NCBI RefSeq assembly: GCF_964204645.1
Contig: NC_134028.1
Coordinates: 14,205,653-14,269,652, forward strand
Source: Tubulanus polymorphus
Lineage: Eukaryota; Animalia; Nemertea
DNA: 64,000 nt
Reading direction: 5' to 3'
A model generated the notes under the pieces. That model did no database searches and was not told the DNA's origin. It was given only the letters and a program-made list of their open reading frames with translations. The translations under genes and the position numbers were made by a program. Below, in pieces: positions 33,077 through 59,911 of the stretch; within the stretch, counting starts at the first letter, position 1, and each line of letters starts with the position of its first letter.

Positions 33077-33093
33077 GAAAATATGTAAAATAA

Positions 33094-33838: not shown

Positions 33839-33855
33839 TTTTTTTCACTATATAA

Positions 33856-34419: not shown

Positions 34420-34443
34420 ATGCATAATTTTTTTGCTAAATAA

Positions 34444-34838: not shown

Positions 34839-34858
34839 TAATTTTTTTTTCTAAATAA

Positions 34859-35293
34859 ATGGAAGATAAAGTTGATAATATTGATATTATTCCTCATGAT
34901 ATAAATAAAACTAAATTAAAAACATATTTAGAAAAACAAATATTAGAATTTGAAAGTGACTTAAAAGTTAAAAAGAAAAAATATTTAAATAGTAAAATTA
35001 TATATTATCTTACTATCAGTGGTTCGGTTACAATTTGTTCGGTAATAACATTTCTAGCAATATTCAGTCCATTAACACCTTTAGCTATATCAATTGGTGT
35101 ATTAGGATTAAGTTCAAGTGTTTTAACTGGTATAAGTTCAAAATTAAATATAAAAAGTAATAAAGAAAAAATTAAAACTAATATAAAAGAAATTAATAAA
35201 TTAAAGAATACACTAGATTATATAATAAGTTTAAATGGCCATATAACAGTTGAAGAACAAGATAAATTATTAAAAGAATTAGTTAATTATTAA
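34859..35293 (+). CDS. 144-aa two-TM protein
   Basis: Two adjacent hydrophobic helices flanked by coiled segments; conserved in D. Confidence 0.75.
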   Translation: MEDKVDNIDIIPHDINKTKLKTYLEKQILEFESDLKVKKKKYLNSKIIYYLTISGSVTICSVITFLAIFSPLTPLAISIGVLGLSSSVLTGISSKLNIKSNKEKIKTNIKEINKLKNTLDYIISLNGHITVEEQDKLLKELVNY

Positions 35294-35309
35294 TTTTTTA
35301 TTTATATAA

Positions 35310-36538
35310 ATGGTAGATAGTTTTCCAAAAGCTTTCCAATATAATAAATCAATTAAATATAATATTCCAGCAATAGATTTTAATAAAGATATTACATATA
35401 GAAATGAAGTTTTAGATTCATTAACTAATTTAGAAATTTTTGTTACTGAAACTAATAATTTTAATGCTAAGATGGAAAATATATTTCATGTATATTTAAT
35501 TAATTTTAGAAAATTGAAAGATGAAAAACAATGGATATTAAAATCTAATATGAAGTATTGGCTTTACCAGGATCAAGATATTTCAAAGAATTAGATAATA
35601 ATATTAATTTATCAAAGTTTTATAAAATTTGTAATGAATTTAATATAGATATAAGTAATTCTGATTTTAGAACAAAAATTGGAACAATAAGATCACTTCC
35701 TTGCCCTAAAAAGATTGCAGAATATTGTGCACTTCCCATACCATCTAATAGTTTTTATATCTATAATAATAAATTAGGTTATGGTAAAATAGAAACTAAG
35801 GATTTAGAAACATTAAATTTCAATAAATTACCGACATTTTATGATAATTTAAAACAAGAAAACAATAATGGTTGGGTTTATTTCATTTTAGAAAATAGTG
35901 AAGGTTTTACTAAATCAGGTATAGAAAGAATAAATCAATCTATTAGAACTTATTTGATATGTATTTTAGGATCGCAAGTTGAAACAAGATCCCCAATAAT
36001 TGGAAATTTAAATACATCATTTGATACACAGAAACAATTCAAAGTATTATTTAAAGATTCCATTCATAATGATAAAAATAGATCGATTCCAGAAAACATT
36101 ATAAGATATCAAAATTAATTAGATAAATCTCATGTAAGACTTAATTATTGTATAGGCCCTAATCTATTAATTATTTCTAATGATTTAGTATTAAAGATAG
36201 GAAATATAATTGGTTATAATAATCTAATTAAAACTGCAACAATAAATAATTCATTTGGATTGAATGATATAAATAAAAAGATTATTACTGCTCCAAAATT
36301 AATGGAAGGTGAAAAAAATAAAAAATACATTCAATCAACTGAAACTAAAACTAAGAATATTAAATTGGTTAATGATTCCAAAATAAAAGATTACAATACT
36401 ACAGAAAATATTAAAACTGATAATATTCAACATGATATAATTAAACTAAATGATGATAATAAATCCCATGAAAATACTAAATTAGCTTTAACTTGTATAG
36501 GAATTGTAATCGGAGGAATATTATATTTTAAATTTTAA
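35310..36538 (+). pseudogene. Conserved ~430-aa protein with C-terminal TM segment, internal deletion and stop
   Basis: Homologous to 52820-54160; lacks the CATTGCG segment because of a deletion at ~35561. Confidence 0.75.
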
Positions 36539-36554
36539 TTTTTTTATTATGTAA

Positions 36555-38261
36555 ATGGCAGAAGGTGGAGAAGGTTTTCCATTGGGTGGCATTGGAAATA
36601 ATAATGAAGGATTTATACCTGATAAACCACAACCTGATTTTGATGAAACAAGTTTTAATGATGGTAATGAATCAGCATATAATTCTAATTTAGGTGAAGA
36701 TGATTCTAGTGGGCCTATATTATATGATTATGATGAATTTAAAGATGATACTGAAACAAGTGAAAAATTAATAGATTATTTAAGAACACGCGATGAGATA
36801 ATAATTAAAACTAGACCAAAAAGAAAAGATTTAATTAATAGATTAGAAAGAACAGAAAACCCTGAATTGAAAAAAGAATTATTATACATAAAACATAGTG
36901 TAACAAATACAGTTATTGAAGAATTATTACCAAAAAATGTAACATATAACATTGAACCAGAAGATATTGCAATACAAATTGTAGAAGATGATCCATTCTT
37001 CATGAATAATTTAGAATTTAAAAATGATTCATGGTTTTATAAAGTTGAATTAAATAACGAAACTGTATCAATTCAATTATCTAAAATGGGACAAAAAGAT
37101 CTGTACCATCCTGAAATGCGTGCAGGATCTTCAATTGAACGTTCAAAAGGTGGTAGAGAATTTCTCAGAATTATATGGAATGCAATCGATAGAATAAATG
37201 AAGAACATATTCATAATATTGATATAAACAAATATTCACCATTTAAAAATCCAAATCCAAATCCTACTGATGTTGATCCAGAAACTGATGAAGATTTTGC
37301 AAATCGATTAGATAGATTAAGATCTTCAACGCCCGAAACATCGAGAAGAGACACTCAACCAATTGATAATGATTCAAGTCAATTACAATTAGTATTAGAA
37401 GAACAAATTGATAGATTAAGAGATTCAGAAGAAGAGATGAATAGTACTGGAATAAATCGAATACAATCTTTACTAAAAAAAGGACTTCTTAAATTAACTG
37501 ATGATGAATTGGAAGCATTTCCTGAACAATCACGTAGAGAAATTAAAGGTATACAAGAATCAGCTGATGTAAATGCTAATATTAATATGAGATTTTCTAA
37601 AATAGCCATGTTAGAAAAAGAATTAGCTATTGCAAATGAAAAATTAGAACAATTAGAATTAAATAGAGATCTTAATGTAATTTATGAAGCTTATTATGAA
37701 AGCGGAAAGTTAGCTTTAGAAAAAGAAATAGATGATTTAAAATATAATATAGAATTACAGAAAGAAGAAAGAGATACATTATTAAAATCATATGATCTTA
37801 ATCATATTAAAAAATTTAAAGTTATTTTTAAAGATTTGTTGATAAAACCAAATTCTGAAATATCATTGAAAGATAGAATAAAATTATAATTTAAGTTAGA
37901 AGGAATAACAATTCTTTCAATTCTAACAGCTGTAACTATGTTATTTACAACAATAGGTTTAGCAATATCAAATGCTTTAAAATCTACTCCTACTCCCAAT
38001 AAACCGGATAAACCCCCGAATGATAATAATTCTATACAAGATAAAGTTAAGGATGGTTTAAGAAAATTAGCAAAATATTTATGGGAACTATCTAAAAAAT
38101 CTGCTGCAGCTTTACCAGGAATTATTGCATCAATTGTTGGTTTTATATTGAAATCTGCAGGAAACATTATTAACTTTGCTGCTGAACATATTATTTTATT
38201 TTTAATTACAGTTGTAAGTGCTATTATTTTTGGGTTAGTAAACAAGATCAAAAATAAATAA
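36555..38261 (+). pseudogene. MAEGG-type coiled-coil/membrane protein (~568 aa, one internal stop)
   Basis: The 444-aa and 107-aa ORFs are in the same frame, separated by TAA; C-terminal hydrophobic helices. Confidence 0.8.
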
Positions 38262-38281
38262 TTAATTTTTTTGTTAAATAA

Positions 38282-39524
38282 ATGAGTGGGAGTTATATCA
38301 ATCCTTCTAAGAATCATAGAATATCTAATGCTATTAAAGCAGAAAGATCACATCATATAATTACTCATAACCCTTCTAACATTAATCCTGATGAAACTTT
38401 ATATGTTATAATTCCTCGATTAACACAAAATACTTTTTATGTTCCAAATAGTATTTATTTATCAGCCGATATAAAAGTAACTGGTCATGATAATAATTAT
38501 GTTGTTGATTATGTTGGAAGATATTCGATTAAAAAATTAACTATAAAGATTGGTCCAGAAACCGTTTTCTCATTAGATGATTATAATTTATTTATGCATT
38601 ATAAAGATTTATGGTTAACTAAAGAAAATAGAAATAATATGATATTTCAAGGAATCCAATCAGAAAACCATAATAAATTAAGATCAGGAGCTAATGACGC
38701 AATAGTAACTCGTACCGCAGATAATTTGATTAAAAAGATTCATGGAAGCAAATATAAAATTCCATTAGACTTTGAATTGATAAATAATAATGCGCCTTTA
38801 TATAAATACGCAATTCAAGAAGACGTTATATTCGAAATAACATTTGCTCCTGTAAATGAAATTGTATTATCTAGCGTAAGATATGAGTTATAATTTATCG
38901 AATATATGTTTAGAATATGACACAGTAACTGATTAAAATATTGCAAGTATAATTCAAACTAAATACAATCAAGGATTTTCATTATTATATGATTATATTG
39001 ATAAATTTAAAACCGTAACTATTAATGCAAATGATGAAATTATTAATGAGAATATTAACTTCCCAAGAAGATCTATTAAAGGTATATTAATATTTTTTAC
39101 CATTGCAACATATTCTAATGGTGCAATACAGGTTGATAAGTATTATAATCCTGAAATAACAAAAGTAGAAATAACTATCGAAGGAATAGCAAATAAAATA
39201 TTTTGTCAAGGAATGAGAATGATAGATCAATGGCCAGAAATTAGAAAACATTTTATGAATGAAAAAGTAAAATCATCTGAAAATTGTAATATTAATCAAA
39301 TTGATTATTATACCGGTAATAAATATGCATTATGGTTAGATTTTAGAACAACGGAGGATAATTCATTACATGGTTCTGGAAAAAAATTACAAAACACTAA
39401 AGATGGAATACAATTATTCATGACAAAGAAAAAAGGAAGCTTAAATTTCAAAATGCACGTTTATATTATATCTGATGCGCAATTAAATATTGTAAATTCT
39501 CAATTAAATAGTGTTATGTATTAA
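38282..39524 (+). pseudogene. Putative double jelly-roll major capsid protein, disrupted
   Basis: Highly conserved across B, C and D; ~410 aa; beta-rich pattern (NPSNINPDETLYVRIP, IPLDF, LEYDTV, INENINFPRRSIKGILIFF, YALWLDFR). Confidence 0.72.
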
Positions 39525-39556
39525 AATTTTAACTTTAATAAAAAATCTTATATTAA

Positions 39557-40681
39557 ATGGAAGGTGGAATATATGAAATACAAACTCCAAGTGAAATGAT
39601 AACAGATATATATTATATATTACCTTATGATGAATACATTAAGTATTTTGGAGATTACCTTAATCAATTCAAATATAGAATAAGTAAAATAAAAGATAAT
39701 ATTGAAACTAAAATAGAAGATAAGAATGATATTGAATATAAAATAGAAGATGATATTGAAACTAAAATAGAAGATAGTAATAATATTGAAACTAAAATAG
39801 AAGATGTAACAGCATCTACATCTTATAATATACCCTCTACATATGATATTGAATCAAAAAAAGATTATTATAATCCAAAATATTGTGATGTATGTAAGAA
39901 ATATATATCATATAAAAATTGGGCATCACATAAGAAATCAAAGAAACATATAGAAAAAGAAAAGAATAATAATGATAATAATATATCAGTTAGTAATATA
40001 AAAGATAATGTTAACCCAATTGAAACTAATGATACCATAGATAATATAACAGATAATGTTTACCCAATTGAAACTAATGATAATGATATAACAGATAATG
40101 AAATAATTGATGATTCTAAAAAACATTGTAACATTTGTAATTTAGATATTTCTAAAAGTAATTTTTCTAAAAATAAAAAATCTAAGGGGCACATAGAAAA
40201 TGAAAAAGAATTAATATGTGATTATTGTAATAAAGAAATTGAACCTGTTGATAAAATTACTTATTATAAATCAAAATTACATCTAATTATTGTTTATAAA
40301 AAAGTGGGTATGTTACCATTGTTAGATGAACCAAAGAAATATATCAAATATTTTAATCCTGAAACTAAACAATATCATATATTCTTTAAGTTGTCATTTG
40401 ATAAATTATTAGCTTATGCAGAAGATAATCCTGACCAAATATATAAATTAGCGTATAATGGATACCTAGATTTATTTAATTTAATAAATGATTTTGAATT
40501 TGATTTTGATGGTGATAATTCTAATGATTACTTTGAAAAATTAAGAATAAAAGCTGGATTAAGTGATGATGAACGTAGAATGAAGGATGAAATAGAATTA
40601 ATAAATATGCCAAAGACTTCTGATGAATTTGATATAAACAAAGATGATTTTATAAATGTATTAGAAACAAAATTAGAATAA
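39557..40681 (+). CDS. Multi-zinc-finger protein with IETKIED repeats
   Basis: Three CxxC...H..S..H-type motifs (some degenerate); homolog of 19655-20749. Confidence 0.8.
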   Translation: MEGGIYEIQTPSEMITDIYYILPYDEYIKYFGDYLNQFKYRISKIKDNIETKIEDKNDIEYKIEDDIETKIEDSNNIETKIEDVTASTSYNIPSTYDIESKKDYYNPKYCDVCKKYISYKNWASHKKSKKHIEKEKNNNDNNISVSNIKDNVNPIETNDTIDNITDNVYPIETNDNDITDNEIIDDSKKHCNICNLDISKSNFSKNKKSKGHIENEKELICDYCNKEIEPVDKITYYKSKLHLIIVYKKVGMLPLLDEPKKYIKYFNPETKQYHIFFKLSFDKLLAYAEDNPDQIYKLAYNGYLDLFNLINDFEFDFDGDNSNDYFEKLRIKAGLSDDERRMKDEIELINMPKTSDEFDINKDDFINVLETKLE

Positions 40682-40689
40682 TTATTATA

Positions 40690-41020
40690 AAACTATTTAT
40701 ATATCTATAAAAATATTTATATATCTATGCACTAGACGTATGAGTATGAAAGTAAGAACCCAAGAATCCTTGCCAAGAAATATAAATTATAAACATAAAT
40801 TATAAACATAAATTATAAACATAAATTATAAACATAAATTATAAACATAGTTTTAATATATAATTTATTCATCATTATATATTTCATTTAATAATTCATA
40901 TTTCTATGGACTAGACGTACGTAAGAATCCAAGATTCTTGCCAAGAAAGTAAAAAGGTAAGAATCTTACTTTCTTACTCGTACGTCTAGTACATAGAAAT
41001 ATAAATTAGTTTCTATAATA
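40690..41020. repeat. Structured convergent intergenic region (candidate bidirectional terminator)
   Basis: ATTTCTATGGACTAGACGTACG...CGTACGTCTAGTACATAGAAAT inverted repeat and (TATAAACATAAAT)n array between convergent gene blocks. Confidence 0.75.
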
Positions 41021-41037
41021 TTCCAAATTATAAATAG

Positions 41038-41649
41038 TTATTTTATAAATTTATATTCATATGGAAATTGTAGTCTCAGTAATAATTTTGAACCTTTATT
41101 ATTCTTTAATTTATTCATATATTCATCATGTAATTCAGTATGTATAATTTGATTTTCTTCCAATGATTGTTGCATAGATTTTTTATCTTTGTTATAAATT
41201 AAAACTAGAAATCTTATATTCTCCCTAAAGTCTTTAACAATTGAATTATATTTTTGATTTATAACCCATGTTGTTATCCCAAAATGTCTCCCAGAGAAAG
41301 CTAGATAACATAACTCACTTTCTCTCACTTTTGAATCATGTAGATTAGCACAATCATCTACAATGAATAATGTATTTGATCCTTTATAAGTATCAATTGC
41401 TATTTTAATACAATTATCTAAATTTTCCTTTACTGTTTTAGGATCTAATATAATAAACTTTTTCATCTCAACTATATCTCTATTATATGTTTTATTCATT
41501 TCATAAGTAGGACCGAATAATATTATATTATCAAAATGATTCTTATAAATAGTTTCTAACAAATCTAATATGAAATGTGTTTTACCACAATTGGTTACTC
41601 CAGTAACTAACATATTATGCGGTTCAAATATAAATAAATCTTTACTCAT
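41038..41649 (-). CDS. A32/FtsK-like genome packaging ATPase (intact)
   Basis: GVTNCGKT Walker A, LFIVDD Walker B, SGRH arginine motif, NQKY sensor. Confidence 0.93.
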   Translation of the reverse strand: MSKDLFIFEPHNMLVTGVTNCGKTHFILDLLETIYKNHFDNIILFGPTYEMNKTYNRDIVEMKKFIILDPKTVKENLDNCIKIAIDTYKGSNTLFIVDDCANLHDSKVRESELCYLAFSGRHFGITTWVINQKYNSIVKDFRENIRFLVLIYNKDKKSMQQSLEENQIIHTELHDEYMNKLKNNKGSKLLLRLQFPYEYKFIK

Positions 41650-42751
41650 TTATTCTTTTAATTTTACTAGATAAAATCCATTCATTAAATTTATCATCGT
41701 ATCCTTTATATTTCACCAAAGAATACTTTTTTCCTTTAAGAGTTTTCGTTTTCAATACTTTTTCTATTTTGTATTCTATTTCATCTGGATTTGGTACAAG
41801 TGATAATTCTTGTTCATAGAAATAACCTAATATTTCTTCATCTTTTATATCTTCTAATTTATAAACAAAAGGTTTAGTTAATATTATCTATTTAATCTTG
41901 AATATTTCTTCAGTAAAATTTGGGGTATAACCTTTATAAAAAGTTTTTCTATATTTAGATATTCTTACGTGTTGTCCTATTTTAAATTTAGGTTCACCGA
42001 AATCATGTGTAACAAACGCTCCATATAAATTATTCCAAACTATTTCCGAATTATCTTCTTTTCTAGCTTGTATAGGTTTCATATTTATAGAACTATGTTT
42101 AGAATTATTATAACCTTTCACTAAATCATCTAATACATCGATATATTTGTATGTTTCATTAGCAGTAAAATATTTCCACATTCTAGTTTTCAATGTTTTA
42201 TTAAATCTTTCTATAATACATGCTTTTTTATCCGAGTGTGTTGAAAAATAATCTACATCGTTATCAGATAATAGTTTTTTGAAATGTTTGTTATAAAATT
42301 CCTTACCTTCATCAAATTGTATCTTATCTGGAATAGCTTCTTTAAATATATTCTTAAAAGCATTTGTCACTTCTATGCCAGTTTTATTTTTGATTGGAAT
42401 TGACCATGCGTATCTACTGAATATGTCTATAACATTTAATATCCAGAAATATCCTTTGTTGTATTCCTCTAAGTTCTTCATGTCAATTAAATCTGCTTGC
42501 CATTGTTGATCGATATATGAAACCATAACTTTTCTTGTTTTATCCATTTTCTTGTGGATTTGATATGTTGGTTGATTTTGTAACCATGATTTCAATTCAC
42601 TATATTTTATATCACCGTGTGGGTGCCATACGGCACCATTACCATTTTCCTTATCAGATTTAATTTTACCCCATAATTCTGTAACGTTAGAATATGATAC
42701 TTCACTTTCTGGGTTATAATATAACTCTCTTAAATATTCTTCTTTTTTCAT
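41642..42751 (-). pseudogene. rve integrase with chromodomain, internal stop at 41888
   Basis: Intact DDE core (WQADL, QFDEGKEF, IERFNKT); the chromodomain lies after the stop. Confidence 0.93.
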
Positions 42752-42757
42752 CTTATT

Positions 42758-43156
42758 TTAATCCATTAATAATAATTTAGATTTAGTTTCAATGACTTTA
42801 TGATTTGACTTATTTTCTGGTATGATAGGTTTACTGTCTGTATACGGATAACTAAGTTTCCGATTGTTATTGGAATCATCTTTATCATCAGATTTGAATT
42901 TTGATTTATATATTACACCGGATAATATAATAATTGTGATTAACCCAATTGTAATATATAAGTAATTATTTCTTCCACTATTAGAAGAATTAGATGGATT
43001 ACTATTTGAATCAATATCAGATAAAGTCGGTGATTCATTTATATCAGTTAATTTCTTTTTCTTAGCTTTTTTTAATTCTGAAGATCTTTTACCCAATTCT
43101 CTTGTCCATTTAATTTGTTTTTCAGATCTAGCCTTTTTCTTAACATCATCACTCAT
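42758..43156 (-). CDS. 132-aa basic single-TM protein
   Basis: Lys-rich N-terminus and YLYITIGLITIIILSGVIY TM segment; conserved in B and D. Confidence 0.75.
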   Translation of the reverse strand: MSDDVKKKARSEKQIKWTRELGKRSSELKKAKKKKLTDINESPTLSDIDSNSNPSNSSNSGRNNYLYITIGLITIIILSGVIYKSKFKSDDKDDSNNNRKLSYPYTDSKPIIPENKSNHKVIETKSKLLLMD

Positions 43157-43159
43157 TTA

Positions 43160-43757
43160 TTTTAGTTAATTTTTGTTCTGATTCATTTTCTGTTTAGACG
43201 TTTGGTTGTAGTACAGCGTCATCTGTTTCGTTCTTACCTGATTTATATTCCATAGGCTTGATGTTCGAAAATGTTATGACGCCAGTAGAAATTAATGTCA
43301 AAACCGATCCTAATTGAAATGAAGCATATCCGACCCATTTTTGTAATTCAGTCATAACTAACTAGTCATTTTTCAAATCACTATATAATTTATTTTCATC
43401 ATCAATTGGTATTAACTGGTTACATAACTTAGAGTAACATTTTATAATACCATCACTTATAGAGTCGTTTATTCTAGCTAATCTAGCTTCTTCATAAATC
43501 TAAAAATATTTTATTACTTTATCGGGTTTCATAGCATCTAATTCTTGAAAAGTTATTATTTTCCCGATAAACTGATTACATTTACCACTAGCAATTAATA
43601 ATTCTAGATGGTGCTTACAATATAAATAGTATTCATAATCAATATTACAATTAATATTATTTTCAATTTTGATTGGAATATCCTTATTATCACTAATACC
43701 TAAATCATCTAATGTTTTTTCAATATCAATACTATTCTTACTCGATTTCTTTGACAT
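43160..43757 (-). pseudogene. Conserved ~200-aa hypothetical protein, internal stop
   Basis: Homologous to 6818-7425 and 60307-60887. Confidence 0.7.
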
Positions 43758-44016
43758 TTATATTAGAGAAATTAAATAAGAAAAATATTATAAGTATTAT
43801 AAAATGATACCAGTATCTTTTTAGATTAATACTAGCTTAGTTAAAGGTAAATAATTTTAGTATTAGTTATTGTTTTTTTAGTATTTTTTATTTGTGATAT
43901 AAAGTATTCTTTTTTGAAAAGAAAATATTAAAAAAACAATAACTAATACTGGCTAGTTGAAGATATGTAATTTTTAATACTTTTTATTTAAAATCTATTA
44001 TTCTTTAACCACTCAT

Positions 44017-44667
44017 TTAAGACTCAACGTATTGTTCATTATTTGGATCATTGTTCCATTGATCAATAAATTTCTTTGCCTTTGTTAACTGTTCTGAATA
44101 TAACTGTAAATCTAGTTTATTAGATTTGATTTGATTTTCTTTCTTTTCTAGAGGTCTTAAATTTTTCCAACCCCAAATAAGTTTTTTATTGTATTCATCA
44201 TTCATGTTAAATTTAGATAACACATGATCAATATGAAAGTATTCACCATAATTATCTACATTCATTTTATCGTCGAATTGATATATTATCCACGATTTTA
44301 AGAATTCATCTGTACAACCCAACAAATTAGATAGTGTTTCTGAATGTGTTTCTTTGTTGAATAATTGTGTTAATCTAGATCTTAAACATTGTTTCAATCT
44401 AAAATTAAGATCTGTTTGATATCTTTCTCTCATATATTCTGCCATATATTAATTATAATGTTCTATATTATCTTCTCAGTATTGTTTGGTATATAGTTTA
44501 AAACAAGTTTTACAGCAATATTGAAAACCATATTTGCTAATCTTACGCTTACTAAATTCTGTTAAAGCTAATTTATCTAATTCACATTTACAACACTTCT
44601 TGTAATATATATTTATAACACCAGTGTTATTTGTAATATTGATAGTTTGTGGTTGTTCTGGTTCCAT
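44017..44667 (-). pseudogene. HNH-like nuclease, internal stop
   Basis: Two in-frame fragments; HIDHVL and NLRPLEKKEN motifs. Confidence 0.75.
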
Positions 44668-44996
44668 TTATTATACGTATTTTTTACTAAATTGGTTAAT
44701 ATTTTAGAATCCTCTTCCATTTCTTCGACCAACGTCATCCTTTTTAATTCCTCGCTGCTTTTGATAAGTTGTTTCGATTCCCTGATATCAAATTCCTCAA
44801 CGTATTGTTCATTATTTGGATCATTATTCCATAATTCAATAAATTTCTTTGCCTTTGTTAACTGTTCTGAATATAACTGTAAATATTCTAGTTTCAATTT
44901 ATTCTCTAAATGTGTTTTAGTTTTATTGTGTCTTGCTTTTTGGGATTTATCTATATTGATTTTACATGTTGGGCAGTAGTACTTATTTGCTTCCAT
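44613..44996 (-). other. Chimeric ORF: PolB N-terminal zinc finger fused to an HNH C-terminal fragment
   Basis: The first 38 aa are identical to the 28677 ORF, followed by LQLYSEQLTKAKKFI... from the HNH tail. Confidence 0.8.
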
Positions 44997-45075
44997 TTTA
45001 ATATCAAATTTTTTATTAAAATTGATTTTAGAAGTTTTTCATTTATATTTTATTCATATATATGAATATTTTAAG

Positions 45076-45459
45076 AGTAATAGGGAATATGTTGTTTCAG
45101 GTTAAAGGTTGAATGGTCGAGTTCATTAATAACAAATATTAAAAGTAATTTAAAACTATAATATATTTTCATAACCGTGTGTATTTCAGTTGAATATTAT
45201 TTTCATTTGAATATATTTGATTATATGAATGTGTGTATTGTAAATAAATCAATTGGTCGCGGAGCGGAGCGGTAGCGAAGTGGTGATTTAATACAATATG
45301 CTTTTTAAATTATTGATATCTTAGAATAAATATTTAGTTTTAATATAAAATGCACACGGTAATGAAAATATATTATAGTTTTAAATTACTTTTAATGTTT
45401 TGTTTTTAATGAACTCGGCCGTTCGACCTTTGATCTGAAACAACATATTCCCTATTACT
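45076..45459. repeat. Right terminal fold-back (384 bp) of element C
   Basis: Reverse complement of 28204-28597 with a ~10-nt deletion beside the loop. Confidence 0.95.
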
Positions 45460-45630
45460 CATAGACACCAAGCCACGTGGCATTGGTTTTTTAAGGGCTA
45501 TTCAGTTTACTCCAAAACAAGTCAATGATTAACATTAAAAAAGCTTCATATCAAGGGTATGTCGCAGGACTCGTGACGCCCATGAATTATCATCCCATAA
45601 TTACAATGAATCCAATTCTGCATGTACGTT

Positions 45631-46040
45631 AGTAATAGGGGTAATGGGCTTTCAGGCCAAAGGTCGAAGGGTCGAGCTCATTAAAAAACAAAACATTAAA
45701 AGTAACTTAAAACTATAATATATTTTCATAACCGTGTGTATTTTATATTATAACTAAATATTCATTCTAAGATATCAATAATTTAAATTTAAAAAGCATA
45801 TTGTATTAAATCAATTGGTCGCTCCACTTCGCTACCGCTCCGCTCCGCGACCAATTGATTTATTTACAATACACAAATTCATATAATCAAATATATTTTA
45901 ATAATAATTATTATTCTATTATTCAACTGAAATACACACGGTTATGAAAATATATTATAGTTTTAAATTACTTTTAAAATTTGTTTTTAATGAACTCGAC
46001 CATTCAACCTTTAACCTGAAAGCCCATTACCCCTATTACT
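45631..46040. repeat. Left terminal fold-back (410 bp) of element D
   Basis: AGTAATAGGGGTAATGGGCTTTCAG...CTGAAAGCCCATTACCCCTATTACT. Confidence 0.95.
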
Positions 46041-46246
46041 CTTAAAATATTCATGTAAATGAATAACATTTAAATTGAAAGATTATTCAATATAAAAGTA
46101 TATATTTACAACATTATTTCAATATTCATATTTGTGTGAGTTAGATTTTTAAACATTAAAAGTGTTAGTAAAGTGTGATTGAAATAATACATGATATAAA
46201 TCATTGAACTTCTAAAATCAATTTTAATAAAAAATTTAGTATTAAA

Positions 46247-49200
46247 ATGGAAGCAAATAAGTACTACTGTCCAAAATGTAATATCAATATAGATAAATCC
46301 CAAAAAGCAAGACACAATAAAACTAAAACACATTTAGAGAATAAATTGAAACTAGAATATAAAGATGATATATTAGAAACTAAATTAGATGAATTAAAGA
46401 ATGAAAAAGAAATATACAAATGTGATACATGTAATCAATCATTCAGTGATAAAAGATATTATAATGAACATTTAAAATCTAAAAGTCATATTAGAAATAA
46501 GAATAATGATATTTTAGGTGAAGATTATTTTGATAAAGATAATGATAAGAAACAGAAGACAATTAAAAGCATAAACAATAAATTAAACAATAAAAGACCA
46601 TACATGGAAGATGTAAGAAATTATATTAATTCATTAGATAATAAAAAAGATATAGAGATAACCGAAGCATTTAAAAGTGATATTGGCCCAGCAGCTATCG
46701 AGTTTAAATTTCATAAAGGAAAAACATTAGGAGAAAATAAAAAACATTTAGAAAATATGAAAGAAATAATAAAAATAATTACTGATGTTGAATATCCTAA
46801 AATTAGTATATCAGTTAAAGTTAAATTCATAAAATCTGAAGATAAACCAATATATATTATAAATTCTCATTCACAACATATTATATATAAACAACATATA
46901 GATGATAAATTAAGATAAATGTTATAATGAAGTAAAAACTAAAATAGAAGAGAAATATTTTGAAGGATCTGGTTTAATATTTGATGAAATAATATTTATG
47001 ACTTTACATGTTTATAACACAAAATATAATAAGTTTACTAAATCAAAACCAATTGATGAAAATAATGTATCATATTATAAAGAACCAGATATTGAAGCAT
47101 CGAGTTATATTAAACTACCATTTAAAACTAATTCTGTAATAAATGTACAAAATGAAGATGATAAATGTTTTCTATGGACAATTATAAGTTGTTTACACCC
47201 AGTTGTAGATTATAATAAACATACTTATAGATTAACAAATTATAAACAATTTGAAAATAATTATAAGATAGATAAGTATCCTGTTATAATTAAAAACATC
47301 CCAAAAATAGAAAGAGATAATTATATAAAGATAAATGTATTTGATTTAATCAAATTACCAAATACAAAAGGTAACAATATTAAACATTATACATTAGAAC
47401 CTTTATATCTATCAAAAGATTATGATTCAAACGATGTTATAGATATACTATATTATGAGAATCATTATATGTTGATTAAACAAATCGATTTATTTTTTAA
47501 ATCAGAAAGTGATCACCATAAAATATATCTTTGTAGAAAATGTTTACATAGATTCAGTAATGAAAGTACATTATTAAATCATAAACAATTATGTGAAAAT
47601 CATGATTATTGTAAATTAGTTTTACCAAATGAAAAGGATAAAATATTAGAATTCAAAAAATATGATTACAAAAATAAAGTACCATTTGTAATATATGGAG
47701 ATTTTGAATCATTAAATAAAGATCTAACTGATCAAGATAGAAAAGAAATATATTATAAAAGAAAGAAATTAAATTCTAATGAAAATGATTTTTCAGATGA
47801 ACCACCAAAAACAAATACTATTAAAAAGATTCATCAATCAGCCGCAGCTTTCGGGTTATATATAAAATCTGATTATCCAGAACTAATTGAAAGTGAATAT
47901 TATCATTATAGAAATGAAAATGTTATCAATCATTTTTGTGACTTATTTATTGAATATGAAATAAGATTTAGTAAATTATTGAATACAAATATAGAAATTA
48001 TAATGACAGAAGAAGATAAAGAAGCATTTGCGTTTGCAGATAAATGTTATTATTGTGAAAAGATATTTAATTATAAAGATAAAAAAGTAAGAGACCATGA
48101 TCATTTGAATGGAAAGTTTAGAGGCGCTGCACATGAGGATTGTAACTTACAAGCTAAGAAAATTAACTTTGTACCAGTTATATTTCATAATCTATCAGGA
48201 TATGATGCACATTTATTCATCAAACAGTTATGTCATAAAATAGAAGAAATCAATAATGAAATAGAAAGATTAAATTCAAATAGATCAAAAGATAAAATAC
48301 CAACTTATAAATTTAGAATGTTAGCTAAAACATCTGAGAATTATATATCATTCCAATTTGGTTGCCTAAGATTTATAGATTCGTATAGATTTTTAAATAG
48401 TTCATTAGATAACTTATCAAAATCATTAGTTGATGATGAATTAAAGATATTAAAACAAAACTACCCAAATAATGATGATTTTAAATTAATGAGATATAAA
48501 GGAGCAATTCCATATTCTTTCTATAAAAATCATAATGATTTTAACATAACTGAATTATTGAAAGAACAATTCTATGATGAATTAAAAAATGAATATGTTA
48601 AAGATGAAGTCTATAATAGAACATTGAATATTTGGAATCATTTCAAAATAGAAAATCATGGACAATTAGTAGATTTATATCTAAAATCAGATGTATTATT
48701 ATTAACCGATATATTCGAAAGGTAAAAACCTAAAATATTTTAACATTGATCCTTGTCATTGTTATTCATCACCAGGTTTAACATGGGATTGTGGATTAAA
48801 ATTTACAGATATAAAAATAGATTTGTTAACAAATATAGATCAATTACTATTATTTGAAAAATCTATAAGAGGAGGAGTTTCAGGTGTATTAGGTGATAGA
48901 TATTTCAATGTAAATGATAATCCTGGATTTAAATTATTATATAAAGATGCAAATAATTTGTATGGTTGGGCAATGATGGAACCACAACCTTATGGAGTAT
49001 TTGAATTAACTGAAGTTTTACAGAATGAAAATAATGATAAATTTGATTGGAGGAAAGAATTCTAGATATTGCGGATGATTCAGATACTGGTTACTTCTTT
49101 GTTGTAGATTTAGAATATCCTGAACATATTAAATTTAAATCTAGAAATCTAGCATACTGCCCCGAACATAAAACTGTAACACATGAAGAATTATCAAATG

Positions 49201-50161
49201 ACCAAAAAAGAATTAAACCTGAAAATCATATTCATACAGAAAAGTTAATGGTAACTCAAGAAGATAAATATAATTATGTAGTACATTATAGAATGTTGAA
49301 GTGTTTTTCGAGAAAGATTTCTTCAAGTTAATGAACAATGCATTCTATGGTAAGACTTGTGAAAATATTAGAAATAGAAATGATATTGAGTTAGTTAGTA
49401 ATGGTAAAAGAATTAGACATTTACAATCATATCCTAAGTTCATTGGTAACAGAATATTTGATGAAAATTTAGCTGCAGTTAAGATGAGACGAACATCAAT
49501 GAAATTTAATAAACCAATCTATGTTGGCCCTTCAGTTTTAGAATTATCAAAATTACTAATGTATGAATTCTATTATAATGTATTACAACCACTTTTTGGA
49601 GAAAAACATATAGAAATATTATATTTTGATACTGACAGTTACATATTAAAGATAAAAACTGATAACATAACTGATGATTTAAAAACATTAAAACATCATT
49701 TTGATTTTAGTAACTATCCTTAAGATCATGAATTGTTTAGCAATGACAATAAAAAAGTTCCCGGTAAATTCAAGGATGAATTAGGCGGTGAAGAAATGAT
49801 TGAATTCATCGGTATTAGATCTAAAATTTATTCATATAAAACTAAAGAACATGAAGCTAAAAAGTTAAAAGGAATAACCAAAAGTGTAGTAGAAAAGAAT
49901 ATTCATTTCAAAGATTACATCAATTGTATATTCAATGAAGAAGTTAGAAAACATAAGATGAGATGTTTAAGATCTGAAGATCATGGAATGTTTATTGAAG
50001 AAATTGAAAAGATAAGTCTAAACCCATTTGATGATAAAAGATATATTTTAGATGATGGAATTCATACAGTTGCTTATGGTTGTAATTTAGATGAATACTT
50101 AAAATTTAAAAGAGAAGAAACAAAAGAGAACGAGATAATGAAAAGAATTCTAACGTGTTAA
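46247..50161 (+). pseudogene. polB: Protein-primed-type PolB polyprotein, fragmented
   Basis: INVQNEDDKCFLW (OTU-like protease-type motif), C2H2 finger, VIYGDFES, EndoVII-like insert, DANNLYGWAM, KLMNNAFYGK, YFDTDS; frameshifts and a deletion near 49300. Confidence 0.95.
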
Positions 50162-50190
50162 TCAAATTTTAATAAAAATATGTATTATAA

Positions 50191-50543
50191 ATGGAGAGTA
50201 AACAACACACAGTGAGAACAACAAATTATTTCTAGATAGAATTAAAGATATAACAAATGTAAAATCTGTAGATTATAAATTCAAAAAGTTAACAGAATTA
50301 ACAATTCATAAGAAATATCTAATTACAAATATTGATACAGTTTCTAATAACTATGGAGATAAATTAGTTATACACTTAGAATATGAAGGATTAAAAGGAA
50401 ATACATATAAATTCAGAACATATTTACCGGATAGATTTCATAGATTATCAAGTGAAGACCTAGAAGAATTATGTTCTGGAGATTTCTATTTCGTATGCAA
50501 AGGTAAGAATGAAAAAGGGCACCATGAAATAGATTTCGAATAA
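50191..50543 (+). pseudogene. 117-aa protein homolog, frameshifted
   Basis: Near-identical to 32723-33076 with a 1-nt deletion. Confidence 0.7.
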
Positions 50544-50560
50544 GAAAATATGTAAAATAA

Positions 50561-51321
50561 ATGGTAGAATTAAAAGAATACTGAATATTTGTTGATTCTA
50601 GAAGACTTACAAATTATAAATCACATAATTTACTAGTACAATTAGATAGAGAATTCAAGAATTGTGTTGATTTAAAATTAGTTAATATAAGTTTATGTAA
50701 TTCTTTTTACAATATATCGGATAAAAGTATTGAACACAGAGCCTTTTTAATTTTTGATACAGGTAAAAATGAATGGGTCTATATATATTTAAAAACAGGG
50801 TTATATAATTTAGATACATTGGCACAAGAAATTAATAGAAAAGCCTGGCACAAATTAGGTAGTAGTTCTGGGTTTAGTATTAGATTTTTAAAAAGTGATA
50901 GTTCTGATAGAATAAAGATAAGGTTGTCTAATAGTGAAAAACATAAATTTATGGTAAAAAACCTATAGCTAAACTGTTAGGAATTCTTCCAGATAGATCT
51001 TTTACAAATATTGATGCTGCTACACCAAACTTAATACCTTACACGCATTTTTATATTTATTGCAATTTAATCGATCCTACAAAAACATTCGAAGCAACTA
51101 AAGATATAACTTGTAATTCTGGTTTACTAAACATTTTACCATTGAAGAATGTTAAAGAATTTGGAACGCAAATAAATTATAATTTAACAGAGTGTGATTT
51201 CAAACCATGCATTCCTCGTTTTAATAATTTTAGATTAGAAATTAGAAATCATAATGGATACTTAATTGATTTAAATAATTTCCCTGTAATTTATGAATTA
51301 GTTATAAGATGTAGAGAGTAA
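50561..51321 (+). pseudogene. Minor capsid (penton-like) protein, disrupted
   Basis: Homolog of 33094-33838 with a divergent central part. Confidence 0.72.
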
Positions 51322-51338
51322 TTTTTTTCACTATATAA

Positions 51339-51680
51339 ATGAATATAACTGTTGGCCCGAGTATATGTTTTGGGTTTGATTTTAAACATGGTAAAGAAAT
51401 GAGGATTAAACTAAATGATGTAATTACTGATATAAAAAGTAAATCATTTAACAATGCATCAATGATTAATAAAGAAAATTATAATATAGAAAAAGTAATT
51501 GATTTAATTAAATCACCTTTAGAATATTATGAATTAAATGAAGATGGAATTATTGATGATATTAAAAACATATTAACCAAAATATATGATAATTATAAAA
51601 GTAGTAATGAAATAAATGTTGAATTAATCATAAATAAAATAACTAAATATTTTGATGATAGTAATTTTTTTGATAAATAA
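51339..51680 (+). CDS. 113-aa hypothetical protein
   Basis: Conserved with 33856-34197. Confidence 0.7.
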   Translation: MNITVGPSICFGFDFKHGKEMRIKLNDVITDIKSKSFNNASMINKENYNIEKVIDLIKSPLEYYELNEDGIIDDIKNILTKIYDNYKSSNEINVELIINKITKYFDDSNFFDK

Positions 51681-51902
51681 ATGAGTGATAATAAGTGGAT
51701 AATAACTGGATTATATAATGGAGCATTACTATCAGTTGGAACTGTTGGTTATTCAATGGTATTAAAAAAAGTATTTAAAATGGGAAGTGTTAATGTTGAT
51801 AGATTTGATATAAATGATATTTTAAAATTAACATTAGCAGTTACTTTATCTAATTCAACTATTGATTATTTGGAAAAACAAAAATATATTCCTCCCATAT
51901 AA
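51681..51902 (+). CDS. 73-aa hydrophobic protein
   Basis: Conserved with 34198-34419. Confidence 0.75.
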   Translation: MSDNKWIITGLYNGALLSVGTVGYSMVLKKVFKMGSVNVDRFDINDILKLTLAVTLSNSTIDYLEKQKYIPPI

Positions 51903-51926
51903 ATGCATAATTTTTTTGCTAAATAA

Positions 51927-52349
51927 ATGGCTTCTGCAATTATAACTATTATAGGATCGGCAATTGTTAACGCTTTAGCATTTACTGGTGGCGGTTATTT
52001 ATTTAAGCATATTGATAAAAATAGTTCATTAGGAGAACAAAGAAGACATAACTTAGCATTAGAGAAATACAATAAAGCAGCGGAAGAATATAGAGAAAAA
52101 CGACAAAACTATATGGATTACATCAATAAAGAATTATATGATCAGACGATTTCACATAGAGATTTTCAATCAGTTGATGATGCAATGAGTTTATATAACG
52201 CAGTAACCAATAAAGAAAAATTACATCTATACAAACCTAAATTATCAGATTATTATACCCCAAGTAATGAACAGAAGAAATATGAAATAATATGGATTTT
52301 AGGCGGAACTGTTATTGTTATATTTGTAGCATATAAATTTACTATTTAG
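51927..52349 (+). CDS. 140-aa protein with hydrophobic N-terminus, coiled coil and C-terminal TM segment
   Basis: Intact ORF; IIWILGGTVIVIFVAYKF TM segment. Confidence 0.8.
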   Translation: MASAIITIIGSAIVNALAFTGGGYLFKHIDKNSSLGEQRRHNLALEKYNKAAEEYREKRQNYMDYINKELYDQTISHRDFQSVDDAMSLYNAVTNKEKLHLYKPKLSDYYTPSNEQKKYEIIWILGGTVIVIFVAYKFTI

Positions 52350-52368
52350 TAATTTTTTTTCTAAATAA

Positions 52369-52803
52369 ATGGAAGATAAAGTTGATAATATTGATATAAT
52401 TCCTCATGATATAAATAAAACTAAATTAAAAACATATTTAGAAAAACAAATATTAGAATTTGAAAGTGACTTAAAGATAAAAAAGAAAAAATATTTAAAA
52501 AGTAAAATTATATATTATCTTATTATTAGTGGTTCAGTTACAATTAGTTCTGTAATAACATTTCTAGCAATATTCAGTCCATTAACACCTTTAGCTATAT
52601 CAATTGGTGTATTAGGATTAAGTTCAAGTGTTTTAACTGGTATAAGTTCAAAATTAAATATAAAAAGTAATAAAGAAAAAATTAAAACTAATATAAAAGA
52701 AATTAATAAATTAAAGAATATACTAGATTATATAATAAGTTTAAATGGTCATATAACAGTTGAAGAACAAGATAAATTATTAAAAGAATTAATAAATTAT
52801 TAA
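52369..52803 (+). CDS. 144-aa two-TM protein
   Basis: Conserved with 34859-35293. Confidence 0.75.
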   Translation: MEDKVDNIDIIPHDINKTKLKTYLEKQILEFESDLKIKKKKYLKSKIIYYLIISGSVTISSVITFLAIFSPLTPLAISIGVLGLSSSVLTGISSKLNIKSNKEKIKTNIKEINKLKNILDYIISLNGHITVEEQDKLLKELINY

Positions 52804-52819
52804 TTTTTTAATTATATAA

Positions 52820-54160
52820 ATGGCAGATAGTTTTCCAAAAGCTTTCCAATATAATAAATCAATCAAATATAATATTCCTGCAATAGATTTTAATAAAGAT
52901 ATTACATATAGAAATGAAGTTTTAGATTCATTAACTAATTTAGAAATTTATGTTACTGAAACTAATAATTTTAATGCAAAGATGGAAAATATATTCCATG
53001 TATATTTAATTAATTTTAAAAAATTGAAAGATGAAAAACAATGGTTATTGAAATCTAATATGAAGTATTGGCAGAACCAATTAAATTTTGCTGTTTATTG
53101 TGCAACAACAGGATGTGGAATTAGTTGGAATGATCATTTGAATAATTCTAAATATAAATTAATTCAAAGTTTATCTAGATTTCATACATACTTTCAAATC
53201 AGAATAATATTAAATGAATTAGAGTGCGCTTTACCAGGATCTAGATATTTTAAAGAATTAGATAATAATATTAATTTATCAAAGTTTTATAAAATTTGTA
53301 ATGAATTTAATATAGATATAAATAATTCTGATTTTAGAACAAAAATTGGAACAATAAGATCACTTCCTTGCCCTAAAAAGATTGCAGAATATTGTGCACT
53401 TCCCATACCATCTAATAGTTTGTATAATATCTATAGTAATAAATTAGGTTATGGTAAAATAGAAACTAAGGATTTAGAAACATTAAATTTCAATAAATTA
53501 CCGACATTTTATGATAATTTAAAACAAGAAAACAATAATGGTTGGGTTTATTTTATTTTAGAAAATAGTGAATAGTGGTTTTACTAAATCAGGTATAGAA
53601 AGAATAAATCAATCTATTAGAACTTATTTGATATGTATTTTAGGTGCACAAGTTGAAACAAGATCCCCAATAATTGGAAATTTAAATACATCATTTGATA
53701 CACAGAAACAATTCAAAGTATTATTTGAAGATTCAATTCATAATGATAAAAATAGATCGATTCCAGAAAACATTGTAAGATATCAAAATTATTTAGATAA
53801 ATCACATATTAGATTAAATTATTGTATAGGCCCTAATCTATTAATTATTTCTAATGATTTAGTATTAAAGATGGGAAATATAATTGGTTATAATAATCTA
53901 ATTAAAACTGCAACAATAAATAATTCATTTGGATTGAATGATATAAATAAAAAGATAATTAATGCTCCAAAATTAATGGAAGGTGAAAAAAATAAAAAAC
54001 ACATTCTATCAACAGAAACTAAAACTAAGAATATTAAATTAAATAATGATTCTAAAATAAAAGATTACTAAATGATGATTATAAATCCCATGAAAATACT
54101 AAATTAGCTTTAACTTGTATAGGAATTGTAATCGGAGGAATTTTATATTTTAAATTTTAA
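52820..54160 (+). pseudogene. Conserved ~430-aa protein with C-terminal TM segment, frameshifted
   Basis: YWQNQLNFAVYCATTGCGISWNDHL motif; a small duplication at ~53566 shifts the frame. Confidence 0.75.
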
Positions 54161-54175
54161 TTTTTTATTATGTAA

Positions 54176-55643
54176 ATGGCAGAAGGTGGAGAAGATTATG
54201 AAATGGAAGGCATGGGAAATAATAATGTAGGATGTATTGATGATGATTATAATGATGCAGAAACTAATATTGATGATGGTAATGAATCAGCATATAATTC
54301 TAATTTAGCAGATAGTGGTTCTAAAAGCCCATCAACAGATGAATTTGATAGAAGAACTAGGTCGAGAATACCTCCTGAAAATTTAAATCAAGGTTTAGAA
54401 AGAAAACATTTTGAAAATTATGAATTTATGTATGATTTTCAACGTTTATTTAAAGATTCTGGATATAATATAAATAATAGAGGCGCCAGACTTTAAGTAC
54501 AAGATTTAAAGTTTTTAGATGGTGAATATTATTATCGTGTGAAAGAAAAATCGGATTATTATATTAATATCTCTAATAAAAATCAAGACAAAATAATAGC
54601 AAAATCAACTTTGCTGAAGTCTGACTCATTACTATCTATAATTAAGAGAATAATAAATAGTAATGAAATAGAAGATGTAAGACAAGAAGAAATAAATCAA
54701 AATAAAAGAGTATTTAAACTAAGAATTAATAAATTATTTGAAATAATCAAAGATAATCCAGAAACAGAAACAACTTCTGAACAGAATAAAACTTCCAAAA
54801 CTAGTAAACTTAAATCAAATAAATTTCCAATTGAAAAACTTTTACCAAATGGATTACTTGATGCAACAGATCAACAATTAGAAGATTTAAATAATATATT
54901 TTCTGATAAAGCAATTAGAGAAATTATTAGTATAAGACTTGCATCCGATAAAATTGCGCATGATAAAAGTATAAGAGATTTAAAAATTAGAACTTTAGAA
55001 AAAGAATTAACTGATAAAAATAAAGAAATAGAACAATTAAAATCAGATAGAGATAATAAAGTTATTGAAGAAATTGAATTTAAAAAAAAGAAATGCATAT
55101 TTAGAAAAAGAAATTGATGATTTAGAATATAACATAGAATTACAAAAAGAAGAAATTAAATTATTGTTAAAATCATATGATTATAATATAAATAGATTAA
55201 AAGTTATTTTTAAAGATTTGTTGATGAAACCAAATTCTGAAATATCATTGAAAGATAGAATAAAATTATTATTTAAGTTAGAAGGAATAACAATTCTTTC
55301 AATTCTAACAGCTGTAACTATGTTATTTACAACAATAGGTTTAGCAATATCAAATGCTTTAAAATCTACTCCTACTCCCAAGAAACCGGATAAACCCCCG
55401 AATGATAATAATTCTATACAAGATAAAGTTAAGGATGGTTTAAAGAAATTAGCAAAATATTTATGGGAACTATCTAAAAAATCTGCTGCAGCATTGCCAG
55501 GAGTTATTGCATCAATTGTTGGTTTTATATTGAAATCTGCAGGAAACATTATTAACTTTGCTGCTGAAAATATTATTTTATTTTTAATAACAGTTGTAAG
55601 TGCTATTATTTTTGGATTAGTAAACATGATCAAAAATAAATAA
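54176..55643 (+). pseudogene. MAEGG-type coiled-coil/membrane protein, disrupted
   Basis: Three fragments; conserved hydrophobic C-terminus. Confidence 0.78.
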
Positions 55644-55663
55644 TTAATTTTTTTGTTAAATAA

Positions 55664-56910
55664 ATGAGTGGGAGTTATATCAATCCTTCTAAGAATCATA
55701 GAATATCTAATGCTATTAAAGCAGAAAGATCACATCATATAATTACTCATAACCCTTCTAATATTAATCCCGATGAAACTTTATACGTTAGAATCCCTCG
55801 ATTAACACAAAATACTTTTTACGTTCCAAATAGTATTTATTTATCAGCCGATATAAAAGTAATCGGTAATAATAATAATTATGTTGTTGATAATGTTGGA
55901 AGATATTTGATTAAAAAATTAACAATAAAGATCGGTCCGGAAACAGTTTTCTCATTAGATGATTATAATTTATTTATGCATAATAAAGATTTATGGTTAA
56001 CTAAAGAAAATAGAAATAATATTATATTTCAAGGAATCCAATCAGAAAACCAAAATAAATTAAGATCAGAAGCACATAATGCAATATTAACTAATTCTAT
56101 AGATAAATTGATAAAAAGTATATATGGAAGAAAATATAAAATTCCATTAGACTTTGAATTGATAAATAACAATGCACCTTTATATAAATACGCAATTCAA
56201 GAAGACGTTATATTCGAAATAACATTTGCTCCTGTAAATGAAATTGTAATATCTAGCGTTAATAAAGATATGAGTTATAAATTATCGAATATATGTTTAG
56301 AATATGATAGAGTAACTGATGAAAATATTTCAAGTATAATTCAAACTTAATACAATCAAGGATTTTCATTATTATATGATTATATTGATAAATTTAAAAC
56401 TGTAACTATTAATGCAAATGATGAAATAATTAATGAGAATATTAACTTCCCAAGAAGATCTATTAAAGGTATATTAATATTTTTTACCATTGCAACATAT
56501 ACTAATGGCGCAATAAATGTTGATAATTATTATAATCCTGAAATAACAAAAGTAGAAATAACTATCGAAGGAATAGCAAAAAAATATTTTGTCAAGGAAT
56601 GAGAATGATTGATCAATGGCCAGAAATTAGAAAACATTTTATGAATGAAAAAGTAAAATCATCTGAAAATTGTAATATTAATCAAATTGATTATTATACC
56701 GGTAATAAATATGCATTATGGTTAGATCTTAGAACAACAGAGGATAATTCATTACATGGTTCTGGAAAAAAACTACAGAACACTAAAGATGGAATACAAT
56801 TATTCATGACAAAGAATAAAGGAATCAAAAATTTCAAAATGCACATTTATATTATATCTGACGCGCAATTAAATATTGTAAATTCTCAATTAAATAGTGT
56901 TATGTATTAG
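55664..56910 (+). pseudogene. Putative major capsid protein, disrupted
   Basis: Homolog of 38282-39524; stop at 56348 and a frameshift near 56580. Confidence 0.72.
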
Positions 56911-56942
56911 AATTTTAACTTTAATAAAAATTTATATAATAA

Positions 56943-59905: not shown

Positions 59906-59911
59906 TCTATT

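Follow-up and report, generated by a model that had tools for sequence, protein, structure and literature searches.

Maverick Elements in the Window

The window analyzed here, a 64-kb stretch of contig NC_134028.1 from the nemertean Tubulanus polymorphus, contains five related elements (A-E) with one terminal decamer in common. This decamer, AGTAATAGGG, occurs in 14 copies compared with 0.11 expected by chance, and the copies comprise six inner/outer pairs and both ends of E (Table 1). The elements belong to an ordinary Maverick family, as seen from pPolB, an rve integrase with a chromo domain, an A32 ATPase, TIRs, and TSDs. The TIRs of C and D span 577 and 562 aligned nt, their TSDs are 6 bp long, and the elements measure 17.3 and 18.3 kb, respectively, which places both inside the Maverick/Polinton ranges of 100-1500 bp, 5-8 bp, and 13-25 kb given in the available text of one survey (bioRxiv 10.1101/2023.08.22.554363) and thus supports their membership.

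A Pfam scan covered 65 of the 70 ORFs of at least 100 aa, the five omitted being overlapping antisense ORFs. The A32 ATPase (PF04665) was matched in B, C, and D (E 1.8e-11 to 3.8e-10), and a chromo domain was matched in the integrase copy of B (E 1.8e-7). The endonuclease VII-like domain of the polymerase (PF02945) exceeds the cut-off in C (E 2e-5) and falls short of the curated cut-off in D (E 8.2e-5). The pPolB gene is broken in both C and D, and a PDB search with the D pPolB ORF returned zinc-finger matches only. Zinc-finger ORFs begin inside or close to the TIR. For the major capsid protein, the sole candidate is a weak Pfam match (PF16903, 55664-56350, E 0.0047, below the cut-off). Among the 65 scanned ORFs, neither an adenovirus-like cysteine protease, in a setting of fragmented genes, nor an HUH nickase (NS1/Rep) family was matched.

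The integrase of C has 801 homologues at E<=1e-20. The few named eukaryotic relatives are invertebrate (ribbon worm, 56% identity; lancelet, 42%), and the element is therefore handled as provirus-like in an animal. A single-sequence search with the integrase returned no viral locus, and an alignment search returned 80 metagenome loci and one viral locus. A related TIR or terminal hairpin was found at none of these 81 loci, none of which reached a terminus. Scans for the end motif gave no matches in viral contigs and none in metagenome contigs.

Several further features accompany the elements. C and D are separated by 171 nt (45460-45630), and a read depth of ~800 on the left flank of D indicates that the flank is itself a repeat. 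The TIR of C reaches into the start of its first ORF (28677-29450, 44613-44996), such that the right end of C contains a second, diverging copy of this start; the TIR of D ends before the first ORF. Tandem repeats of 125-129 nt lie near the right end of D (62018-62619), and B has a homologous counterpart at about 5312-5719. B is a nested, interrupted, and truncated copy whose homology with D stops near 24993, and a broken LINE-like retroelement with endonuclease and reverse transcriptase matches is nested within it (16032-18794). Short stretches resembling the terminal sequence occur in the host flanks of C (28176-28183) and A (2719-2735), which may reflect chance or target preference.

Element E has outer-type ends and a 6-bp TSD and possesses no inner arm. 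Its TIRs are 98.9% identical (1.1% apart), and its last 24 nt are almost unpaired in the local fold. The element forms a giant palindrome in which the TIRs contain 24-nt tandem arrays and the spacer holds a zinc-finger ORF (11414-11728), and each TIR combines long-hairpin with B-like segments in a mosaic. E looks like a copy-back, non-autonomous Maverick.

Table 1. Positions of the elements, their genes, and their terminal features in the window.
Feature	Position	Strand	Remarks
Element A, right terminal hairpin	2306..2709	.	Remainder of A outside the window
Element B, terminal hairpin	4057..4250	.	Short, 194 nt; deep stem of its own
Element E, fold-back derivative	9421..13514	.	4.1 kb; TSD TATATG; 1.75-kb TIRs; inserted in the ATPase gene of B
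Element C, Maverick	28204..45459	+	TSD CATAGA; ends complete
C, hairpins	28204-28597 and 45076-45459		
C, pPolB fragment with endonuclease VII-like domain	30389..31789	+	PF03175, E 7.6e-9
C, A32 packaging ATPase	41038..41649	-	PF04665, E 4e-11
C, rve integrase	41888..42751	-	PF00665, E 1.3e-9
Element D, Maverick/Polinton	45631..63890	+	TIRs, TSD TACGTT, Pfam matches; ends complete, several genes broken
D, TSD TACGTT	45625..45630 (left copy), 63891-63896 (right copy)	+	431 reads of the empty site
D, left TIR	45631..46192	+	Partner 63329-63890; 13 substitutions in 562 nt
D, left terminal hairpin	45631..46040	.	Imperfect, 410 nt
D, outer arm, invariant terminal decamer	45631..45640	+	In 14 of 14 arms
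D, outer arm, variable block	45641..45654	+	Positions 11-24
D, outer arm, asymmetric zone	45655..45676	+	Positions 25-46; mismatch patch 25-28; fixed differences 28, 35, 39
D, cap stem and loop	45809..45860	.	GC-rich 24-nt loop
D, inner arm, asymmetric zone	45995..46016	-	Same sequence in all 6 inner arms in the window
D, inner copy of positions 1-24	46017..46040	-	Putative template
D, endonuclease VII-like domain in pPolB ORF (46998-48725)	48003..48152	+	PF02945; CxxC and DHDH motifs
D, right terminal hairpin	63481..63890	.	Inner arm from 63481, outer arm to 63890

Zones of the Terminal Hairpins

An imperfect hairpin opens every TIR of A-D; it measures 384-410 nt in A, C, and D and 194 nt in B. 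A further hairpin length of ~122 nt is represented in reads by joints at 28248-28553 (16 reads) and 45675-45996 (8 reads). Counted from the terminus, three zones can be distinguished: positions 1-24 are matched between the arms, positions 25-46 are asymmetric, and positions from 47 onward are modular.

The arms were compared letter by letter in the four elements with paired arms (A-D), which provide six hairpins. Inner and outer arms show no mismatch at positions 1-10 (0 of 60 sites) and a single mismatch at positions 11-24 (1 of 84 sites, all six hairpins). This variable block reads GTAATAGGCTTTCA in A, GTTTAGTTGTTCTA in B, AATATGTTGTTTCA in C, and GTAATGGGCTTTCA in D, and elements differ from each other at one (A-D), six (B-C and C-D), seven (A-C), eight (B-D), or nine (A-B) of its 14 sites. 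The initial annotation had claimed that the terminal ~24 nt match in all arms of one element and differ between elements; the counts (1 of 84 sites within elements vs. up to 9 of 14 between them) bear this out, and the four blocks that it gave are confirmed along with its one substitution in D. That substitution lies at position 13 of the right inner arm (63493) and fits decay after insertion, since the two TIRs of D differ at 13 of 562 sites (2.3%). Since A and D differ at one site and E at one or two, the distinct block types in the window amount to about three and not four.

The block has diverged faster than its surroundings. Outside both 24-nt ends, the hairpins of C and D differ at 4.3-5.4% of sites (4-7% among A, C, and D), and six differences in 14 have a P of 5e-5 at the rate of the rest of the hairpin. 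At fourfold-degenerate sites in five ORFs, C differs from D at 29 of 264 (11%) and from B at 18 of 152; at fourfold-like rates of 10% and 15%, the six differences have a P of 0.0015 and 0.012, respectively. When inner and outer arms of the four elements are permuted, the true matching is the unique best of 24 (0 mismatches, next 2), with a p of only about 0.04, so the strength of the matching derives from the number of matched differences. Block type does not follow body relatedness: A and D, the most distant pair in a body segment (12.5%), have nearly the same block, and 6 of 14 block sites differ in the closer pairs C-D (6.1%) and B-C (6.8%). An internal template for the blocks was also sought; the scattered matches obtained have one or two mismatches, do not extend further, and are taken as chance.

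In positions 25-46, the inner arms are identical in all six hairpins and each outer arm differs from its own inner arm at four or five sites. These invariably include positions 28, 35, and 39 along with at least one of 25-27. None of the six outer arms carries the inner letters across all of 25-27, and the boundary is thus sharper than selection acting at position 28 by itself would produce. The inner/outer differences at 28, 35, and 39 persist beside matched flanks and across hairpins of differing length, which suggests that they are kept by selection. Within the outer arm at 45662-45675 lie two GGTCGA repeats, which include three CpG sites in A, B, C-left, and E. At two of these sites, the inner arm shows T instead of C, as expected from CpG decay.

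Deeper in the stem, the pattern is mixed. Positions 47-92 of B are unlike those of A, C, and D and are still palindromic across both arms. At columns 64 and 114, the A outer arm carries the letter typical of inner arms; column 109 varies by element, with C/C in A and T/T in D. In C and D, differences of the fixed type remain at 47, 53-54, and 64 and beyond 114. Two earlier claims are narrowed by these observations. Fixed inner/outer differences deeper than the block hold at positions 28, 35, and 39 of all six hairpins but not in the B stem, at columns 64 and 114 of A, or at column 109. Likewise, the homogenization ascribed to the outer 24 nt is present as the matched zone, but co-variation also occurs deeper in the stem.

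The two strands of the hairpin also differ. In the first 92-115 nt, with transversions excluded and the columns partly dependent, G-T wobbles fall on the strand bearing the 3′ end of the terminus in 13 of 15 distinct transition columns and on the other strand in two (p 0.007). The 3′-end strand folds 5-13 kcal/mol better than the other in all six hairpins, and this better-folding strand is the one whose fold-back offers a polymerase a primer. The wobble bias could stem from deamination of an often single-stranded strand instead of selection for folding. In either case, a strand-specific state is implied.

Variation in Raw Reads

About 12% of the raw-read run X6, which carries the same species label, was placed on the left end of D and the left hairpin of C, and the comparison of the D left end also took in three contig sets. 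The alleles 15A, 17G, 18G, 20G, and 22C occur at mirror positions of both arms of the C hairpin, with respective shares of 31, 20, 20, 21, and 18% in the outer arm and 25, 38, 40, 40, and 14% in the inner arm, with the caveats that these reads are not linked, that clipping skews the shares, and that some may have been assigned to the wrong arm. Allele 20G is seen in reads and in 0 of the 14 arms of the window. Reads clipped at position 20 of the C hairpin number 1327 on the outer arm and 455 on the inner arm. In either arm this amounts to roughly half of the depth at that site, and the loose part of these reads was summarized as an A/D-type block. At position 16 of D, variant letters occur in 35% of reads on the outer arm and 36% on the inner arm.

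Next to the block, variation at positions 25, 26, 27, 39, and 47 (24-88%) is confined to the outer arm among the entries listed (40 of 78). Among those listed for the D left end (40 of 151), the outer-type letter is present at inner-arm position 28 in 478 of 1978 reads (~24%) and inner-arm position 42 differs in 422 of 1666 reads (25%). The inner arm is therefore not invariant across the species. At the left end of D, the depth of the outer arm in X6 is ~1.8 times that of the inner arm. These reads, which are short and come from a separate study, cross the hairpin unbroken and pass from the inner arm into the TIR.

Two candidate views of the hairpin were rejected. AAV-type rolling hairpins occur as flip and flop isomers. 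The loop here has a single orientation in five of five long hairpins from three elements, and a few percent of reads switch arm at positions 57-59. An independently mobile mini-element that uses the inner end was also rejected, as no joints between the inner arm and varied host DNA occur among the X6 entries listed. Read depth carries on past the inner arm into the TIR (about 2120 to 1920), and varied loose read ends pile up at 45630-45631 (2054 reads); loose ends at 46040 are absent among the six X6 entries listed. In the reads on the D left end, the inner arm has no visible use as an insertion end.

Some reads follow other paths. At position 57, 652 reads (45687) and 782 reads (28260) that track the outer arm diverge from it; this class represents an abundant end family absent from the window, possibly of short non-autonomous elements. 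Reads that switch arms at 57-59 number 63 on C (28260 / 28539) and possibly belong to a subfamily whose deep stem has been flipped or converted. Further arm-switching reads number 24 and 12 on D. The marine metagenome run X1 gave seven matches only, all short and poor, and is uninformative on habitat.

Proposed Fold-Back Re-Copying and Alternative Explanations

The zoned pattern is best accounted for by re-synthesis of the last ~24 nt of the terminus from the inner arm after the 3′-end strand folds back, a proposal that is given an even chance of being correct. During strand-displacement replication, the 3′ end would pair with the inner arm 200-400 nt away, and the folded 3′ end would be cut back, through trimming or a nick, roughly as far as the mismatch patch at 25-28. 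A polymerase would then refill the terminus on the inner template, in the direction from inner to outer, and TIR-TIR pairing would carry the result to the opposite end. E would rely on TIR-TIR pairing alone. Positions 11-24 would represent a spacer that is no longer constrained by pairing and that recombination reshuffles among copies, and the outer-type letters at 28, 35, and 39 would be kept by selection, probably as a mark of the true end. The direction of re-copying is suggested by the geometry of the hairpin, and the trimming step and the enzyme are likewise putative. Since the Streptomyces Tap system repairs no more than 4 nt and proofreading by itself would fall short of 24 nt, a trimming or nicking step must be assumed.

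Copying by fold-back, as raised in the initial annotation, is favored by the matched differences, by a block that changes faster than fourfold sites, by the folding of the 3′ strand, and by the mirror alleles in the reads, and the Streptomyces Tap system provides a precedent. The unequal shares of mirror alleles (17G, 20% vs. 38%; 20G, 21% vs. 40%) and the outer-type letter at inner position 28 in ~24% of reads on D count against it. The re-copying step would be frequent. It would not be obligatory, because E moved without an inner arm, as witnessed by its TSD, and the outer arm has ~1.8 times the depth of the inner arm. On the same evidence, the earlier statement that the terminal nucleotides must pair perfectly with the inner arm is too strong.

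T4 endonuclease VII cuts junctions and mismatches. Given the endonuclease VII-like domain in the polymerase ORFs of C and D, it can be proposed, albeit with considerable doubt, that in canonical pPolB Mavericks this domain of the element's own polymerase nicks the folded 3′ strand at 25-28, after which the polymerase would rebuild the 24 nt and continue into the genome. If true, this would explain the sharp boundary, the conserved G-T/bubble asymmetry, which resembles the MVM bubble, and the presence of orphan nuclease domains in the polymerases of Polintons. It would also release the end from the host DNA with no need for clean excision. The zoned end has a boundary that is mappable across hundreds of copies, and it would offer a natural substrate for the nuclease domain of the polymerase.

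The main rival to fold-back re-copying is undirected gene conversion or mismatch repair along the whole hairpin, either as a single-strand hairpin or as a chromosomal cruciform, with the 24/25 boundary set by selection alone holding the outer and inner letters at 25-39. This explanation is unlikely on balance, though of real weight. It draws on the co-variation in the deep stem of B, the inner-type letters of the A outer arm at 64 and 114, column 109, the arm-switching reads (63 on C; 24 and 12 on D), and the ~24% of outer-type letters at inner position 28. The deeper conversion-like traces, namely A 64/114 and the arm-switching reads, suit general conversion with selection equally well. However, the differences of C and D persist at 47, 53-54, and 64 and beyond 114 while 11-24 is fully matched, the outer positions 25-27 are variable and never wholly inner-type in six of six hairpins, and selection would have to remove many tracts.

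It is improbable that the arms match without any copying, with an integrase or polymerase that requires the folded end to contain a perfect 24-bp duplex, and with matched blocks that old lineages acquired by compensatory mutation before whole TIR modules were shuffled. Modular hairpin lengths (about 122, 194, and 400 nt) and the independence of the block from the body do indicate that modules recombine, and the G-T wobbles suggest selection on folding. Yet the A, C, and D hairpins are 4-7% apart outside their ends while the C block differs at 6-7 of 14 sites in both arms, and blocks lying 350 nt apart would need to be swapped jointly without the intervening stem. E, which lacks the duplex, also stands against this route, and so does position 16, where A and D differ by a single-site variant found in both arms. 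Strong compensatory selection, one of the causes first offered for the pattern, is thus unlikely as the sole cause, since 6-9 matched differences would need to arise twice.

Equally doubtful is a block that serves as a subfamily code, read by the integrase, the terminal protein, or a zinc-finger ORF, or that escapes host silencing, under diversifying selection. Divergence above that of fourfold sites and the zinc-finger ORFs that begin in or near the TIR would agree with such a code, but block type does not track body distance, the integrase regions of B, C, and D are 94-95% identical with three different blocks, and reads contain many intermediate alleles. With A and D alike in block and most distant in body (12.5%), the specificity code that had been suggested is unsupported. 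Finally, it is scarcely credible that mis-corrected palindromic long reads make the arms look alike, for although long hairpins are generally hard to sequence, such an artefact is largely refuted by short reads from another study on the D left end and the C hairpin, which span the hairpin unbroken and show mirror alleles, and the assembly retains four or five inner/outer differences directly beside the block.

Comparison With Known Systems

To our knowledge, replication of Maverick/Polinton elements has not been demonstrated directly. The models described in the available text of one study rely mainly on TIR-TIR pairing together with protein priming (bioRxiv 10.64898/2026.07.28.741278). The matched 24-nt zone, the conserved mismatch zone, and the strand-biased wobbles would together form the footprint of a folded single-stranded end, and fold-back re-copying, which is the likely cause, would be a rare clue to Maverick replication. 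The end architecture is real, and its zoned pattern goes beyond the descriptions found in the parts of the literature searched. The accessible portions of several papers make no mention of end hairpins in Mavericks (PMC5182062, PMC12220804, PMC6431247, PMC4061559, and bioRxiv 10.1101/2022.07.28.501842), and titles and the beginnings of abstracts, drawn from sources that include few subscription journals, contain no matched variable block or inner/outer asymmetry in Mavericks.

Sf-Maverick 1 and 2 of Spodoptera, as far as their published text was available, resemble C and D in gene set, domains, length (17-18 kb), TIRs of ~570 bp, and a 6-bp TSD, and they possess an endonuclease VII domain in the polymerase as well as an rve-chromo integrase (PMC5803895). 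The terms "hairpin," "palindrom," and "inverted repeat" do not appear in that text, whereas hairpins of 194-410 nt open the TIRs here. The pPolB2 Polintons have HNH or VSR nuclease domains inserted in the polymerase, which is similar to the polymerase-embedded nuclease domain described above; the text available gives no function for these domains and does not use "hairpin" or "palindrom" (bioRxiv 10.1101/2023.08.22.554363).

Outside the Mavericks, the left-end hairpin of the parvovirus MVM contains a mismatch bubble through which one arm becomes an active origin and the other an inactive one, according to the portion of the report available (PMC1185569). MVM is thus similar in its arm asymmetry and in the retention of one orientation, but it needs the HUH nickase NS1 and is an ssDNA virus without integrase or TSD (PMC1185569). 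In Streptomyces, fold-back repair of the telomere 3′ end by Tap has been established experimentally in a protein-primed linear replicon, again from partial text (PMC5449611). As in the proposal made here, the 3′ end folds back onto a template and is rebuilt by extension along it; in contrast, the repair extends to at most 4 nt, involves a 13-nt palindrome and a dedicated primase, and is not homologous (PMC5449611).

For Halocafeteria virophages and PLV subtype 4, terminal palindromes in the TIRs and hairpin-primed replication have been proposed (bioRxiv 10.64898/2026.07.28.741278). The available text of that study contains no comparison of palindrome arms. The palindromes described lie inside the TIRs adjoining the TSD, as they do here, and the hairpin geometry of the present elements allows the extension of a 3′ hairpin into the genome that this model involves. 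However, the palindrome is 52 nt long in the drawn subtype and belongs to protist elements that mostly lack pPolB (bioRxiv 10.64898/2026.07.28.741278), whereas the hairpins described here are longer, imperfect, and carried by pPolB Mavericks, with an arm-matched variable block and strand-biased wobbles. The elements described here thus add pPolB Mavericks to the carriers of terminal palindromes, which the available text from 2026 describes mainly in protist elements that lack pPolB.
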